Shown here: piece after piece, positions 1-4,575 of the stretch
Layout of the letters: every line of letters begins with the position of its first letter
Position numbering within the stretch: the stretch's first letter is position 1
Source: a plasmid
Direction: 5' to 3' (one strand)
DNA: 4,996 nt
Assembly (NCBI RefSeq): GCF_055900595.2
Contig: NZ_JBVWEU010000010.1
Position numbers and translations under genes: made by a program
The notes under the pieces: model-generated
What the model was told of the DNA's origin: nothing
The model's input: only the letters and a program-made list of their open reading frames with translations
Database searches by the model: none

Positions 1-139
1 ATGCACGAACCCCCGTTCAGTCCGACTGCTGCGCCTGTTCCGGTAACTTTCGACTTGAGTCCAACCCGGAAGGCACGACAAAACGCCACTGGCAGCAGCC
101 ACTGGTAAGGGGTGTACAAGAATTACTGGTGCAGAGTTC

Positions 140-169
140 TTGAAGTTACAGCCTAACTACAGCTAAACT
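140..169 (+). promoter_or_regulatory. RNA I promoter (-35 TTGAAG 140-145, -10 TAAACT 164-169)
   Basis: TTGAAG is identical to the pMB1 RNA I -35 and sits in the conserved agagttcttgaag context; 18-bp spacer to TAAACT. Hexamers read directly from sequence; function inferred. Confidence 0.55.
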
Positions 170-175
170 GAAAGG

Positions 176-280
176 ACAGATTTGGTGGCAGCGGTCTTGT
201 ACACCCTGTTACCACGGTTCAGAAGTTCCCCAACTTACTGATCCTTCGAAAAACCACCTCCCCAGGTGGTTTTTTCGTTT
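176..280 (+). ncRNA. RNA I antisense copy-number control RNA (ColE1-type)
   Basis: Starts at ACAGA (cf. pMB1 ACAGTATTTGG) about 7 nt downstream of a TAAACT -10 box; ends at an intrinsic terminator (stem accacct 253-259 / aggtggt 264-270, then a T-run). Length ~105 nt and position relative to the RNA II promoter match ColE1 RNA I. Stem-loop sequences differ from pMB1. Confidence 0.75.
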
Positions 281-290
281 ACAGAGCAAA

Positions 291-319
291 AGATTACATC
301 CCGCAGGTTAGGATCTCAA
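291..319 (-). promoter_or_regulatory. RNA II primer promoter (-35 TTGAGA = rc of 314-319, -10 TAATCT = rc of 291-296)
   Basis: Reverse complement of ggatctcaagaagatcc..agatta gives TTGAGA - 17 bp - TAATCT, the same hexamers and spacing as the pMB1 RNA II promoter (ggatctcaagaagatcc is conserved). Confidence 0.6.
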
Positions 320-495
320 GAAGATCCTTTTAATCGGAATTCGACAACTCCAGATAAGTCATGGTGAGCCAGCCAACCCCTTCGACTGAATATCGTTCCA
401 AAAAAAGGCAGTCAGCTGAAAGAAACTAACAGTAGAACAATAATCTCTAGTACCCTGAATCTAAGCTAACAACAAAACTAGATTAGGAGTTATAG

Positions 496-1554
496 ATGGC
501 GATCTATGCCGTATGGAATAACAAGGGTGGTGTAGGGAAAAGTTACCTTACTTTTCAGTTAGCCTCTGAATATGCCAGACAGAACCCTACTAAAAAGGTC
601 CTGGTGGTTGACCTGTGCCCACAAGCGAACTCGTCCTCTATGTTACTTGGTGGAATGATAAATGGCGAAAACACACTAAACCAGATTCATTCAGCAATAC
701 AGAGAAAGACAATATCTGGATATATTGAGGATAGGATCAGAAGTCCATATATTCCTACCAACACTGGTTCTAGCTATGTAATAAATGTATCTACACACAA
801 TAGTAAAGTTCCAAATAATCTATATCTTGTCACTGGCGATGAACAATTAGAACTCCAAGCATCAAGAGTTGTTGGGGCATCATTTCCAGGTCCCCATGAT
901 GCATGGCGTACTGTTCACCTCTGGATTAATGATTTAATCAGTGACATTTGCAACTCATGGAATAATGAAGATAGCTGCGTATTCATTGACTGCAACCCTA
1001 GCTTCTCTATTTATACAGAGTTAGCTTTAACCGCAGCAGAGCGCCTTTTAATTCCTTTCTCTGCCGATGGTTCATCAAAGAGAGCAGTTAAGGCTGTACT
1101 TTCTTTAGTTTATGGTGAGCGTCGCCATCAGAATGAACCACAATCAGATTTCTATCTTAATAGCAATCGTTATTCTATGTCGCTACCACAAATATATATG
1201 TATGTTGGAAATAGATTAACGCAAATGAACAATTCATCTGCCAGTGCATTTAAGACGGTAGTAACCGAAATTGGTGATGAAATTTGGAAAGTATGGCAAA
1301 CAAAACCAAGTCTGTTTTGTATTCACCCAAATGGGAGCTCAACGCCAAATAATAAAAGATCTTTCAGGAATATGTTTCAGTATGAAGTAAATGATGCAAA
1401 CACAGCATCTGTCGTATCTGGAGCCTTAGGTATTCCAATCGCGACATTAACTGCAGGAAATAAAACTGTTTCAGGAAAAATAATAAAGGTTAATCAGACG
1501 CAGCTAGATAAACAAGTCCCCAACATTGTAGCTCTCGCTGGTATGATCGAATAA
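496..1554 (+). CDS. ParA/MinD/Soj-superfamily P-loop ATPase, 352 aa, with ~90-aa C-terminal extension of unknown function
   Basis: ATG preceded by AGGAG (484-488, 7-nt spacer). Deviant Walker A KGGVGKS at residues 10-16 (nt 523-543); ParA-type VLVVDLCPQANSS segment; Walker B-like CVFID (nt 976-990) followed by NPSFSIYTELALTAAERLLIPFSAD. Long uninterrupted ORF ending at a strong intrinsic terminator. AT-rich compared with the backbone. No symbol assigned because the specific family is not recognised. Confidence 0.85.
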   Translation: MAIYAVWNNKGGVGKSYLTFQLASEYARQNPTKKVLVVDLCPQANSSSMLLGGMINGENTLNQIHSAIQRKTISGYIEDRIRSPYIPTNTGSSYVINVSTHNSKVPNNLYLVTGDEQLELQASRVVGASFPGPHDAWRTVHLWINDLISDICNSWNNEDSCVFIDCNPSFSIYTELALTAAERLLIPFSADGSSKRAVKAVLSLVYGERRHQNEPQSDFYLNSNRYSMSLPQIYMYVGNRLTQMNNSSASAFKTVVTEIGDEIWKVWQTKPSLFCIHPNGSSTPNNKRSFRNMFQYEVNDANTASVVSGALGIPIATLTAGNKTVSGKIIKVNQTQLDKQVPNIVALAGMIE

Positions 1555-1556
1555 AA

Positions 1557-1590
1557 TAGCAAGGCCCTTAAAAGGGCCTTTTTTTATTTG
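1557..1590. terminator. Bidirectional intrinsic terminator between convergent genes
   Basis: Perfect 7-bp GC-rich stem aaggccc (1561-1567) / gggcctt (1574-1580) with 6-nt loop, followed on the plus strand by a T-run (1581-1585 and beyond) and flanked on the minus strand by a weaker U-rich stretch. Lies 3 nt after the ParA-like stop and just after the stop of the 1584-1841 minus-strand ORF. Confidence 0.7.
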
Positions 1591-1841
1591 TTTTTCTTTA
1601 CTGCTTGCAGCGCCCTGCCAGCACTAGAGGCCAACTCTTTGATTACATTATCTTTACTTTCAACAACCTCAGTAAGCAACTCGTTTTCGTTTTCCAGTTT
1701 ATTCAAAGCGTTCTGAGTATCTTCAATAGCATCATCATACCCTTCGGCATAGCCATCCATCCAACCAAGAGTATACGTTTGGTCCAAAAGATCAGCTTGC
1801 TTATCCTGCAGATCTTTATTCTGATTATTGTTAGAGCCCAT
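1584..1841 (-). CDS. Small acidic hypothetical protein, 85 aa (D/E/N/Q-rich, probably helical)
   Basis: ATG at 1841 preceded on the minus strand by TGAGGAAAAAAC (GAGG about 8 nt upstream); ends at the shared terminator. The plus-strand antisense ORF (1605-1901) starts with TTG, lacks an SD and is hydrophobic, so the minus-strand reading is preferred. No recognisable family. Confidence 0.6.
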   Translation of the reverse strand: MGSNNNQNKDLQDKQADLLDQTYTLGWMDGYAEGYDDAIEDTQNALNKLENENELLTEVVESKDNVIKELASSAGRALQAVKKNK

Positions 1842-2016
1842 GTTTTTTCCTCATTTGTTGGCGCATCTGAGTTTTCAAACCAGGAGGAATTCCATTTCTA
1901 AGTTTCTCACTTAGTCTGACTGGTGGTGTGTTTCCTGAGACTGGATTACAGTCAGCATCCACCCCGACATCTTTCTTTTTATAGTCGCCAATATTCCTAA
2001 CGTTATCTGTAGTCAT
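1831..2016 (-). CDS. Possible small basic protein, 61 aa, overlapping the start of the 85-aa ORF by 11 nt
   Basis: ATG at 2016 downstream of the AT-rich divergent promoter region; its last codons contain the SD of the next ORF (translational-coupling geometry). No convincing SD of its own and no recognisable motif; may be only a 5' leader. Confidence 0.3.
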   Translation of the reverse strand: MTTDNVRNIGDYKKKDVGVDADCNPVSGNTPPVRLSEKLRNGIPPGLKTQMRQQMRKKHGL

Positions 2017-2179
2017 AGAAAACCACGCCCATTGCTGTGAATAACCGAACTATAAACCAGAAAAAAAACGTACGGCTTATCATAACACTTGACACAAAAA
2101 AACACCGCTACTCTCCAAGCAAAAAACATAAAATTGGAAAAACAAAATCACAAGCACATGATAACAATAGATATTAATA

Positions 2180-2207
2180 TTTACTTACATTTAGTGAGTT
2201 TTATAAT
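2180..2207 (+). promoter_or_regulatory. Candidate sigma70 promoter for the 143-aa ORF (-35 TTTACT 2180-2185, -10 TATAAT 2202-2207)
   Basis: Exact TATAAT hexamer with a 16-bp spacer to a TTTACT -35-like hexamer, ~50 nt upstream of the ATG at 2259, inside a 240-bp AT-rich divergent intergenic region. Prediction by eye only. Confidence 0.35.
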
Positions 2208-2258
2208 TAGAAAAACAATGTAATTTAATAATCACAAACATTACCTAAGGACGAACTG

Positions 2259-2690
2259 ATGAAAATACCCGCGCATTTGAAGCATAAACCAATTATTCAA
2301 GTCGAAAATTACGACCGCATTGACGGCCCACATGCCGATGACACTGATGCTATGGGGCTATCTGTAGGTATTGCTCAATGGAACACTCCTGGATGGACTG
2401 AGCTTTCGGCAAAGGTTTGGCGAAACACAGGAGAAAAATGGTCAAGACAATCAGAAGAGCTGCCTCTTCACCGGGTAATCGACCTTGCAACTCTGATCTG
2501 TATCACCATGGACTACAGTAAAAATGGGCGACTTTCATCCAGTGATGATTTTCCCGTGACTCGCTCAACTGATAACCCTGAGCTAGCACATCACACTGAG
2601 TTTATGAAAAAAGAGTTAAAACAAAATAAAAGCAATCTTGATGTAAGCCTCAAACGCCTCTCGACTGAATTGAAGAGACTTGGCTATTAA
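2259..2690 (+). CDS. Hypothetical protein, 143 aa, unknown function
   Basis: ATG preceded by TAAGGA (2246-2251, 7-nt spacer); candidate promoter upstream; ORF ends 38 nt before the first Xer-like site. No recognisable catalytic motif; C-terminus is K/E/L-rich. Confidence 0.65.
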   Translation: MKIPAHLKHKPIIQVENYDRIDGPHADDTDAMGLSVGIAQWNTPGWTELSAKVWRNTGEKWSRQSEELPLHRVIDLATLICITMDYSKNGRLSSSDDFPVTRSTDNPELAHHTEFMKKELKQNKSNLDVSLKRLSTELKRLGY

Positions 2691-2727
2691 AACTAGCTTT
2701 AGAAATGTCTACCTACTTCACAGACGA

Positions 2728-2755
2728 ATTTACCATAACATCCGTTTTTCGAACC
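2728..2755 (-). other. XerC/XerD-type site-specific recombination site (cer/dif-like, 6-bp central region), site 1
   Basis: Minus-strand reading GGTTCGAAAAA-CGGATG-TTATGGTAAAT (11-6-11). The XerD arm is identical to the cer XerD arm TTATGGTAAAT; the XerC arm matches consensus GGTGCGnAnAA at about 7 of 11 positions. Shares an identical 20-bp core (aatttaccataacatccgtt, 2727-2746) with site 2. Confidence 0.6.
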
Positions 2756-2760
2756 ATAAT

Positions 2761-2778
2761 GGCAGGCTATAGCCTGCC
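2761..2778. repeat. Perfect 18-bp palindrome ggcaggctatagcctgcc
   Basis: The sequence equals its own reverse complement; lies between Xer-like site 1 and the stop codon (2784) of the 134-aa minus-strand ORF. No strong T-run, so a terminator role is uncertain; could be a protein-binding site. Confidence 0.5.
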
Positions 2779-2783
2779 GTAAT

Positions 2784-3188
2784 TCACCGGAAAAAATCAT
2801 CCACAGAGTCGCTCCACTCATGCCCGGAAAGAGACCACACCTTGTTTATAGGGGGAGGATAACCACTCCTGCAGTACCCGTTTTTTCCCACGAAATCGAA
2901 TGCCCCGTGCGGGTATCCATTGATCAGGAGTACGCACTTCTGACTGTCTTCTGACCAGCCAATTTTAACATCAGAAGGAATGTGACCGTCTGAAACGTCT
3001 TCGGCATTGTAGATGTGTACTGCGTCCATAATCGGGTTTCCCTCGACGGACTCATCGAGCGCATAGAAATACCCGGTCCGGCCATCGTCTTCGAACACGG
3101 CGGCCAGCATGCCCTCAGGAGCGAGGCTCTTTATAACCTGTTCCTCCCCGACAACGAGCTGGGCCTGTATCGTCACTAAAATGGTCAT
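2784..3188 (-). CDS. Hypothetical protein, 134 aa, GC-rich, cargo of the Xer-bounded cassette
   Basis: ATG at 3188 with AAGGAG about 10 nt upstream on the minus strand; the ORF fills almost all of the interval between the two Xer-like sites. No motif recognised. The overlapping 70-aa minus-strand ORF (3115-3327) is judged spurious. Confidence 0.6.
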   Translation of the reverse strand: MTILVTIQAQLVVGEEQVIKSLAPEGMLAAVFEDDGRTGYFYALDESVEGNPIMDAVHIYNAEDVSDGHIPSDVKIGWSEDSQKCVLLINGYPHGAFDFVGKNGYCRSGYPPPINKVWSLSGHEWSDSVDDFFR

Positions 3189-3245
3189 CAGGTCTGTTCT
3201 CCTTTCCTTGGTTGCTTCGGCAGCCAGCTTTCAGACAAGCGGATA

Positions 3246-3273
3246 ATTTACCATAACATCCGTTATCAGCATC
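3246..3273 (-). other. XerC/XerD-type site-specific recombination site (cer/dif-like), site 2; candidate plasmid multimer-resolution site
   Basis: Minus-strand reading GATGCTGATAA-CGGATG-TTATGGTAAAT; central region and XerD arm identical to site 1, XerC arm about 8 of 11 to consensus. About 300 bp of GC-rich sequence with no credible ORF lies on its XerC side (3274-3580), where cer-type accessory sequences would be expected. Confidence 0.6.
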
Positions 3274-3594
3274 GTCAGAAACGCGCTGAGGGCGTTTCTG
3301 ACGGGAAACCGGTAAAACAGGCAACAAACCACCCGAAAACCCGCCAGAAACGCGCAGGCTCTGTTTTTATGGCATGCATGAGTATGCACGCAAGTGCATA
3401 GCGCGAATATTCACGCCATTCAGACAGGGTAAGTCCTGTTTCCGGCGTTCTTCCCATCCGAAAACGGTGAACGGGGACGCAATTTATTGCGTGGCCGTGA
3501 AGCGTTGCCGGCGCAGCCGGAAAACCGGTTTTCAGCACGTTCAGGAATCGGGTTCGTCGACGGCCGGCAATCACGTTATGGCAAGTCGCCGGAC

Positions 3595-3784
3595 GACTCA
3601 CCACACGATTCACCGGCGACTCTGCACTAGAGTCGTACCTAGAGTCGCCGCGACTAAAAAACAACCAAACGGGGAGTCGGGTCTAGAGTCGGGTCGTTAT
3701 TAACTCATTGTTTTTATAGCCCTGAGTCGTTACCGACTCTATGACGACTCGCCGGGGACTCTATGACGAGTCGTCATAGAGTCG
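3595..3784. repeat. Array of 12 GAGTC/GACTC motifs (11 as the hexamer GAGTCG/CGACTC), including two pairs of tandem 12-bp repeats and nested inverted repeats
   Basis: Counted directly: GAGTC at 3630, 3642, 3674, 3686, 3724, 3768, 3779; GACTC at 3595, 3618, 3735, 3746, 3757. Tandem ctagagtcg at 3627 and 3639; tandem gagtcgggtc at 3674 and 3686; 13-bp gactctatgacga at 3735 and 3757 (direct) and 3771 (inverted). Chance expectation for a 5-mer on both strands in ~190 bp is under 1. Confidence 0.7.
3757..3783. repeat. 27-bp perfect palindrome gactctatgacgagtcgtcatagagtc (13-bp arms around a central G)
   Basis: Every position i pairs with position 28-i; sits at the end of the GAGTCG array, immediately before an AT-rich stretch (3786-3860). 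Confidence 0.75.
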
Positions 3785-3982
3785 GATCTATATAAATAAA
3801 ATTTAAAAAACGAAATCTCAGGAAAGTAAACTACTGATATTAAATACAAATCTGCAAAATTTTAATTTTGCGTGGGGTGTGGGTATTTTTAGTGGTGAGG
3901 AGCGTTCAGAGATCTGACTATTTTTGGGAAGGTTCAGGAACTCCCCGGGATGGCCGGAGAGGAAAACTGAAGCATGACAGGG

Positions 3983-4384
3983 TCAGGATTTTTTCCAGAA
4001 TTTCCACCATGGCGCCGGGGATTCAGTTAATTTTGCCTGGTGATTTTCAAGAAGGAGCATGGCCTGTTTCAGGCTGTCAATGTGCGAATCTTTGGACAAA
4101 AGTAAAGTGTTCAGGTGTTCAATCTCCTGTTTCAGATGACGAATCACCTGTTCACACTGGTCAACAGAGGCTGTATCGCGCTGTTCAGAGACCTGTCCAG
4201 AATGGTGTTCACCCTTCAGTTGTTCAAAGGGACCAAAGACACGTAAAAGCTCTGAAGTATCTACCATTTTTGCATTGCGCTCACCGCTACAGGTGGACAG
4301 GTCACCTGCTTTAATTAACCTGTGCAGTGTTGTTCTACTCTTACCCGTCAGTCGGGCTGCCTCACTAATAGACACTCTGGCCAT
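3983..4384 (-). CDS. HTH DNA-binding protein (excisionase/MerR-like HTH_17-type N-terminus) with C-terminal coiled-coil-like region, 133 aa
   Basis: N-terminus SISEAARLTGKSRTTLHRLIKAGDLS fits the excisionase-family HTH pattern (EAAxLxGxSxxTxxRLIxxGxL); the C-terminal half is heptad-like and Q/E/L-rich. Start ATG overlaps the rop stop (TGATG at 4382-4386), implying co-transcription and translational coupling. Its antisense 148-aa ORF is Arg-rich and judged spurious. Confidence 0.7.
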   Translation of the reverse strand: MARVSISEAARLTGKSRTTLHRLIKAGDLSTCSGERNAKMVDTSELLRVFGPFEQLKGEHHSGQVSEQRDTASVDQCEQVIRHLKQEIEHLNTLLLSKDSHIDSLKQAMLLLENHQAKLTESPAPWWKFWKKS

Positions 4385-4575
4385 CAGTTACCATCCTGTA
4401 ATGCATCCAGTCTCGAGGACAGTGTACGGAAAAGATGCTCCGCATCATCGTGGAGTTTCTCACAAAGGTCGGCCTCGACATCAAGATCAAGCTCGTTAAG
4501 CTTCTCCAGCAGGAGCAGAGATTGATGCTGGATGAATTTAGCCATGTTCAGCGCTGTTTTCTGTTGTTTCGTCAT
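4384..4575 (-). CDS. rop: Rop/Rom RNA I-RNA II interaction modulator, 63 aa
   Basis: Translation MTKQQKTALNMAKFIQHQSLLLLEKLNELDLDVEADLCEKLHDDAEHLFRTL... closely matches ColE1/pMB1 Rop (MTKQEKTALNMARFIRSQTLTLLEKLNELDADEQADICESLHD..., recalled from memory), with identical length of 63 aa; located just downstream of the origin in replication direction. Confidence 0.9.
   Translation of the reverse strand: MTKQQKTALNMAKFIQHQSLLLLEKLNELDLDVEADLCEKLHDDAEHLFRTLSSRLDALQDGN

Follow-up and report, generated by a model that had tools for sequence, protein, structure and literature searches.

The 143-aa open reading frame (ORF) on the forward strand at 2259-2690 of a complete small ColE1-type plasmid (4996 nt, hereafter the window) encodes a member of the DUF6530 family. 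Alignment of the regions upstream of DUF6530 genes revealed that a 7-bp palindrome, TTA(G/C)TAA, is repeated there in almost every lineage, and the gene forms, together with its promoter, a module that recurs on unrelated plasmid backbones. We consider that the DUF6530 protein is probably, though by no means certainly, a repressor of its own gene that recognises a specific DNA sequence through a new fold, and we infer that it is this protein itself that binds the array and that its binding is repressive. Clinical Enterobacterales very commonly carry small cryptic plasmids of the ColE1 type, on which the majority of ORFs lack a known role. A link to a DNA motif that spans phyla turns this domain of unknown function into a hypothesis that can be checked by gel-shift and reporter assays.

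The ORF starts with an ATG and ends with a TAA codon (included in the coordinates above), and its expression signals are those that an earlier note on this DNA had read from the sequence. A sigma-70-type promoter on the forward strand (-35 TTTACT at 2180-2185, a 16-nt spacer and an exact -10 TATAAT at 2202-2207; 10 of 12 matches) is the sole sigma-70-like match within 1500-3300, and the promoter block is conserved in plasmid p5217 and in chromosomal copies of the gene. The strong TAAGGA Shine-Dalgarno (SD) sequence occupies 2246-2251 (+) and is separated from the ATG by 7 nt, and the stop codon is indeed close to the first Xer site (37 nt from the site at 2728-2755). Against relatives with 77-78% identical DNA, the gene is under strong purifying selection (pS 0.73-0.88, which is saturated; pN 0.06-0.11), and about 40 plasmid records carry it intact, with a protein of 100% identity. 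Since synonymous sites are saturated and non-synonymous change is low, the 143-aa ORF is real, and we conclude that it is a genuine, independently expressed gene. It is intact in close relatives and does not belong to a well-characterised housekeeping plasmid family, two points on which the earlier note had let its case depend.

At least 36 PLSDB records span at least 80% of the window, most of them 4991-bp plasmids of Klebsiella, E. coli and Enterobacter that are about 99% identical to it. Three records filed under Enterococcus faecium (NZ_CP059753.1, NZ_CP072739.1 and NZ_CP061825.1) hold the same enterobacterial plasmid or gene, and protein cluster P0001 includes a partial protein filed under Mycobacterium tuberculosis; these most likely reflect contamination or mislabelling, not real host range. 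Another record, NZ_CP079813.1 (3264 bp), is labelled a complete plasmid, is 100% identical to 27-3290 of the window and has no replicon typing, and it is probably a truncated assembly.

When the window was compared by blastn with p5217, positions 2175-2692 aligned at 77% identity. The homology starts at 2175, at the DUF6530 promoter, and the next common segment is the Xer-site region at 3246-3345. Since the homology begins only at 2175, what lies on the two sides of this point represents two independent modules that are simply juxtaposed. The segment 2175-2692 (+), with promoter, candidate operator and gene, is the portable DUF6530 module common to unrelated plasmid backbones. The gene had previously been paired, as a regulator and its target, with a small acidic gene that would be divergent from it across an AT-rich region with A-tracts. 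This spacer is real (2017-2258; 242 bp, 70% A+T, five runs of at least five A), but the immediate divergent neighbour is a 61-aa ORF (1831-2016, -); the acidic ORF (85 aa, 1584-1841, -) comes next and overlaps it. These two ORFs form a block with a ParA-like gene, and the block and DUF6530 occur separately: plasmid pSUH-5 has the block without DUF6530, and many plasmid backbones have DUF6530 and no such block. The pairing is therefore not supported. The guess that a regulator is involved is probably right for a different reason, its most likely target being its own promoter.

Contrary to the earlier view that the protein has no recognisable domain, it matches Pfam PF20140 (DUF6530) over its full length (156.6 bits against a gathering score of 23.7 bits, E 6.1e-46, residues 1-143 against profile positions 1-159 of 159). 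The RefSeq annotation agrees, its relatives being named 'DUF6530 family protein'. The two core motifs that we used as scan patterns across phyla, L[ST][IV]G[IL]AQW[NS] and [KR]WSRQSEE, are present as LSVGIAQWN and KWSRQSEE, and both are invariant in our alignment A1 and conserved across phyla. The statement that no biochemical function can be read from the sequence stands, and the PF20140 entry itself carries no function. No defence-protein family of PADLOC-DB v2 matched the protein at E <= 1, NCBIfam and PHROGs returned nothing, and there was no PDB match by sequence or profile. Our literature search retrieved no publication on DUF6530 or PF20140, on the RefSeq protein accession or on the array sequence; as far as we found, the operator array, partner genes and plasmid-cargo behaviour of DUF6530 have not been described.

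The AlphaFold model of the protein is confident (pLDDT 93) and matched no solved structure. No sequence or structural likeness to known DNA-binding folds (helix-turn-helix, ribbon-helix-helix, AbrB/MazE and others) was seen, and comparison with ArdA and ArdB/KlcA-type anti-restriction proteins gave no Pfam match and no PDB structural match. The conserved core, residues 1-88 (2259-2522, +), consists of a four-stranded sheet (strands at residues 9-16, 31-40, 47-56 and 61-63) and the start of a long helix (70-89). It contains the motifs GIAQWN and WSRQSEELP, invariant in A1, and the invariant residues K52, R55, R63, R72, Q40, Q64, S62, S65, W41, W54 and W61. Most distant homologues match residues 1-88 only, and we propose this region as the DNA-reading head. 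The C-terminal helical hairpin, residues 109-141 (2583-2681, +), is modelled with a pLDDT above 94 (helices 109-122 and 124-141), varies between lineages and shows low conservation in A1; it may serve as a dimerisation or partner-binding element.

The association of the palindrome with the gene was quantified in a scan of 80 species. Of the 71 DUF6530 genes, 57 have at least two sites in the 150 nt upstream, whereas only 12 of 958 other genes do (Fisher p 7e-68). Among these 12, ten are divergent neighbours that have the same spacer in common with a DUF6530 gene, and the remaining two (loci L101 and L103) are the first gene of an operon. For 20 proteobacterial genes, exact sites were 96 times denser in the 120 nt upstream of DUF6530 than in the rest of the loci (43 in 2,400 nt versus 39 in 209,938 nt), an enrichment of which base composition explains, by our estimate, only a few-fold. 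Across all loci analysed, which cover roughly 1.2 Mb by our estimate, all clusters of at least two sites lie at a DUF6530 promoter, barring two. One (L101, 6325-6349) stands before the first gene of the partner operon, which encodes an MFS-like transporter, and the other (L066, 3886-3910) is in a second promoter-like stretch of the same design, about 1.2 kb upstream of AAA-VWA-GIY-YIG genes. Outside Proteobacteria, the spacing is 8 bp in 88 of 107 gaps and mostly 16 or 24 in the others, and one Paenibacillus array is TTAGTAAA repeated four times; in Proteobacteria, the spacing is 12, 9 or 13 bp. In 42 of the 57 arrays, the first site starts a median of 10 nt after a TTGACn-16..18-TAnnnT promoter, which is the usual position of a roadblock operator. 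A search of viral contigs was also made and set aside: it gave 31 matches to three tandem units, none with DUF6530 nearby, and nearly all were simple repeats in a single orientation, from contigs rich in A+T (G+C mostly 22-30%; several contigs were giant-virus bins).

The array in front of the DUF6530 gene of the window is degenerate. No exact copy of TTA(G/C)TAA is present in the 4996 nt, and the gene does not have two or more exact sites within the 150 nt upstream. However, four of the 15 one-mismatch sites of the whole window fall within 51 nt (2181-2231), namely TTACTTA at 2181, TTAGTGA at 2191, TTAGAAA at 2207 and TTAATAA at 2225, and a copy with a one-base insertion, TTACCTAA (TTAC-C-TAA), lies against the SD sequence at 2241-2248. 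This candidate operator (2181-2248) runs from the -35 box through the -10 box into the 5′-UTR, with the copy at 2181-2187 overlapping the -35 box and that at 2207-2213 abutting the TATAAT. The exact arrays of relatives hold the same position, and the p5217 promoter has two exact sites. The overlap of an operator with the gene's own promoter, which autoregulation would call for, is thus seen at the sequence level, and from this arrangement we would expect the protein to bind the array of the window. Since the window has no second array, any further target of the protein would have to be in trans, in the host chromosome or in other elements of the same cell.

We propose that the DUF6530 protein would recognise TTA(G/C)TAA on duplex DNA and repress its own promoter. 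The N-terminal sheet-plus-helix core would read the DNA, and the C-terminal hairpin would pair or stack subunits, such that neighbouring sites would be bound cooperatively; the variability of the hairpin could explain the lineage-specific spacing of the arrays. In the window, protein on the degenerate sites would cover both promoter boxes and the leader and thereby block RNA polymerase, and partner operons that have a promoter of their own might be repressed in the same way. The module 2175-2692 is a self-contained cargo that has moved between plasmid backbones and lies beside the Xer site of this plasmid. The product of the gene is the simplest candidate for the binder because the protein core and the motif are both kept from Bacillota to Gammaproteobacteria, a range that no single host factor spans. 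In addition, the palindromic site suits a symmetric dimer, the varied partners on the same strand (GIY-YIG, AAA_5 with VWA, MFS or MATE) are the behaviour of a local regulator, and the layout of long homologues (described below) also speaks for a transcription factor. Against a repressor stand the fold, which matches no known DNA-binding fold, the pI, which is neutral overall and acidic for the core, the degenerate sites of the window itself and the lack of an array upstream of the three fusion genes that were checked (described below). If the link holds, DUF6530 would bring a DNA-binding fold that is new and an operator whose conservation is unusual, and it would be a family of regulators that controls GIY-YIG-like, AAA+/VWA and efflux genes in Bacillota, and TTA(G/C)TAA arrays in host genomes would be the place to seek the targets of the plasmid copy.

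By analogy, such a protein would work most like the array-binding plasmid repressors, of which omega is an example, or like the units composed of a protein and upstream repeats, such as pSK1 Par and R388 StbA. Omega, the repressor encoded by the inc18 plasmid pSM19035, occupies arrayed 7-bp heptads, in either orientation, cooperatively and at its own as well as other promoters. Both omega and DUF6530 are small plasmid-encoded proteins with an array of 7-bp units as the operator, binding being predicted in the case of DUF6530. However, omega is a ribbon-helix-helix protein, whereas the sheet of four strands, the long helix and the hairpin of the DUF6530 model have no structural match, and the units differ in sequence (WATCACW for omega) and in spacing (8 to 12 bp for DUF6530 versus 7 for omega). 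In pSK1 Par and R388 StbA, repeats are arrayed directly upstream of the gene, which encodes a small, autoregulated DNA-binding protein whose C-terminal part is helical. DUF6530 resembles them in the array directly upstream of the gene, the size of the protein, its helical C-terminal part and its presence on plasmids without a dedicated ATPase partner. Their heads are of the helix-turn-helix type, whereas DUF6530 is, outside Proteobacteria, mostly chromosomal and often heads operons of unrelated genes. Finally, like local repressors of efflux pumps and cargo operons (the TetR, MarR and PadR types, and the BrxR-type regulators that precede defence systems), DUF6530 stands first in, or adjoins, variable cargo that includes MFS and MATE transporters, and it has a candidate operator both at its own promoter and at the cargo promoter. 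Unlike these repressors, it has no helix-turn-helix or Pfam DNA-binding domain, and its operator is a multi-copy array and not a single palindrome. Since neither its sequence nor its fold matches those of omega, of Par/StbA or of the local repressors, we place DUF6530 outside all of these families; Pfam DUF6530 is the only membership that is established.

The family is widely distributed. At E <= 0.001, 4,576 clusters at 90% identity and 415 clusters at 50% identity match DUF6530, and it is carried by at least 583 species among species-representative genomes. Carriers include Bacillota, Spirochaetes, Verrucomicrobia, Desulfobacterota, Planctomycetes and Ignavibacteria, with about 45% identity to the plasmid protein. 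Outside Proteobacteria, the gene is mostly chromosomal, and in Bacillota it is found on long chromosomal contigs beside transporters or enzymes. In Gammaproteobacteria, in contrast, the DUF6530 gene stands alone, with its own promoter, as cargo of genomic islands and of plasmids whose backbones are unrelated. It is present on ColE1-type plasmids of 2.6-5.5 kb, on Rep-type mobilisable plasmids and on p5217 of the EPEC strain E2348/69. On a 115-kb Serratia plasmid, it lies inside a Tn3-family transposon, on Pseudomonas conjugative plasmids it directly follows the relaxase gene, and on Acinetobacter phage-plasmids it is beside ArdA and restriction-modification genes; other plasmids with DUF6530 carry viperin, AbiEii and toxin-antitoxin genes. 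The chromosomal islands hold integrases and restriction-modification systems. In Klebsiella, the chromosomal neighbours are an EcoRII-type restriction-modification system, an AbiH fragment and an HD protein, and in Pectobacterium they are an AAA_15 ATPase operon and integrases. Phages nearly lack the family, with three fragmentary records in 50,697 and no PHROG. A conserved downstream partner in Proteobacteria was considered and rejected, as there is no relationship between the 109-aa ORF on the 2.6-kb plasmid and the 108-aa ORF in the Klebsiella island. Two genes downstream of DUF6530 in this island, a 250-aa ORF (locus L002, 8827-9579) has an end that resembles, by eye, an HNH nuclease motif (...FAHIES...NGVIICNHIH...).

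On the 2.6-kb plasmids, DUF6530 is accompanied by one other annotated ORF. Since it is one of only two annotated ORFs on such plasmids, it is probably selected. It is conceivable, though unlikely, that DUF6530 and its array constitute a self-contained mobile protein-DNA unit with a DNA-binding fold not seen before, and that this unit is itself the selected function on minimal plasmids. It might then act as a single-protein device for maintenance or protection, by tethering or clustering plasmid copies, by forming a nucleoprotein roadblock or by silencing matching promoters of the host or of rival elements.

We also considered that DUF6530 may be an effector, that is, a single-gene defence against phages or plasmids or a counter-defence, with the array bound by another factor or serving as an expression element. 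The proteobacterial copies do lie in accessory hot-spots, beside the restriction-modification, AbiH, ArdA, viperin, AbiEii and toxin-antitoxin genes listed above. DUF6530 is also the main cargo of the 2.6-kb plasmids, and the very strong conservation of its polar residues might reflect an active site or else a surface that binds a conserved target. However, the protein has no PADLOC model, and its near absence from phages also speaks against such a role. In R388-type plasmids, the relaxase gene enters the recipient last, and counter-defence genes are usually found in the leading region; the position of the Pseudomonas gene, after the relaxase gene, is outside this region, and we rejected a leading-region counter-defence gene for this reason. 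An effector also leaves unexplained that the array goes with the gene in every phylum and recurs before partner operons. We regard an effector as distinctly unlikely, although the effector and regulatory roles are compatible and not mutually exclusive.

The preferred reading, binding of the protein to duplex DNA, has an alternative at the RNA level, in which DUF6530 would bind the UUA(G/C)UAA units of its own 5′ leader and, like TRAP, act on translation or on the stability of the mRNA. The central base of the sites is G in 110 cases and C in 61, often mixed inside one array, as is expected of a palindrome read on double-stranded DNA; such a change is neutral on the duplex but alters the RNA sequence. 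Moreover, the sites of the window and of p5217 overlap the -35 and -10 boxes, which lie outside the transcript, and no Rfam family matches the arrays, RNAI (177-278) being the only Rfam hit in the window. We judge control at the RNA level to be very improbable.

Outside Proteobacteria, the partner genes on the strand of DUF6530 vary. Crude ORF calls in 80 loci were clustered, and in 35 of the 80 a protein of about 118 aa was encoded on the same strand beside DUF6530, at a median distance of 8 nt and usually just downstream. Its profile matches the I-TevI GIY-YIG domain (E 8e-11). Since the catalytic residues Y6, R27, H31 and E75 are replaced in most members, nuclease activity is improbable. 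The same gene run includes, in ten Paenibacillus loci, genes for an AAA_5 (GvpN/MoxR-like) ATPase and for a VWA protein of the CobT-like type, and in other loci an MFS or MATE transporter follows DUF6530. Many loci lack a partner on the same strand, as only 46 of 77 have a gene on that strand that starts within 150 nt downstream. The set of GIY-YIG, AAA_5, VWA and sometimes MFS genes with DUF6530 was noted across Bacillota loci L034-L103 (for example L037, 8507-11004, and L091, 8482-11923), and our literature search found no publication on the GIY-YIG, vWA and MoxR combination. Long homologues have DUF6530 at the N-terminus, followed by one membrane-spanning segment and a large outer part in which neither Pfam nor NCBIfam detects an extra domain. 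They look like membrane-tethered transcription factors, to judge from this architecture. In one locus (L111, 2734-6517), a 412-aa gene is directly upstream of an 838-aa membrane-anchored fusion and both products end in ...YFNEYY, which suggests that they are tandem paralogues.

The frequency of the GIY-YIG-like neighbour raises the question of whether DUF6530 and this gene form a two-gene cassette, of which the plasmid copy would be an orphan regulator or neutraliser that silences chromosomal or rival cassettes, for anti-addiction or exclusion. A small autoregulated first gene followed by a nuclease-like second gene is the layout of a type II toxin-antitoxin system, and the C-terminal region differs between paired forms (159 aa) and solo forms (143 aa). 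However, a partner that has mostly lost its catalytic residues is unlikely to act as a toxic nuclease, GIY-YIG proteins of a similar kind are widespread without DUF6530, no homologue of the partner was found in the proteobacterial DUF6530 loci, and antitoxins are rarely 45% identical across phyla. In the window, no toxin gene is adjacent to and co-transcribed with DUF6530, the next gene downstream, DUF2251, being on the opposite strand and beyond the Xer site. The cassette is, in our opinion, a highly doubtful explanation.

The remaining features of the window are those of a small ColE1-type plasmid. In addition to RNAI, there is a Rop gene (4384-4575, -; Pfam profile match) and a gene for a helix-turn-helix protein (3983-4384, -), which has a weak NCBIfam match to 'plasmid replication DNA-binding protein' (63 bits, below the 85-bit cut-off). 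The 352-aa ParA-like ATPase (496-1554) terminates at a strong bidirectional terminator (1561-1580) and faces the overlapping reverse-strand 85-aa and 61-aa ORFs; within 496-2016, no ParB-like partner or centromere was identified for it. These two ORFs separate the ATPase gene from DUF6530, with which it is neither co-operonic nor co-inherited, unlike the genes of a ParABS partition system. High-copy ColE1 plasmids normally need no partition. That DUF6530 and a centromere-like array are a single-protein plasmid stabilisation unit, perhaps serving this ATPase, is suggested by the pSK1 Par/R388 StbA layout, by the presence of the gene as one of only two annotated ORFs on 2.6-kb plasmids and by a ParA without an obvious ParB, but it has hardly any likelihood in view of the independent occurrence of ParA and DUF6530, the separate ParA and partner gene on larger DUF6530 plasmids, the location of most members on long Bacillota chromosomal contigs beside transporters or enzymes and the rarity with which high-copy ColE1 plasmids need partition.

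On the right-hand side, the DUF6530 module is followed by two Xer-like core sites in direct orientation, with the DUF2251 gene (2784-3188, -) between them. Site 1 (2728-2755) reads ATTTACCATAA-CATCCG-TTTTTCGAACC, site 2 (3246-3273) is a second copy of it, and the two have 20 identical bases in common (direct repeat 2727-2746/3245-3264). A 4473-bp relative, NZ_OY856408.1, corresponds to the window minus exactly 2747-3244, and the 518-bp DUF2251 cassette looks to have been gained or lost by site-specific recombination at these sites. Site 1 is the right-hand boundary of the module and no part of the function of the DUF6530 gene. A role of the gene as a Xer accessory sequence was rejected, since, by analogy with cer, such sequences lie on the side of the XerC arm, which points away from the gene. 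Upstream of the helix-turn-helix gene, the region 3600-3790 is dense in GAGTCG/CGACTC repeats. Among them are several direct copies of TAGAGTCG and an inverted repeat of 19 nt without mismatches (3733-3751 and 3767-3785), and the region may be a cluster of binding sites or an oriT-like region.
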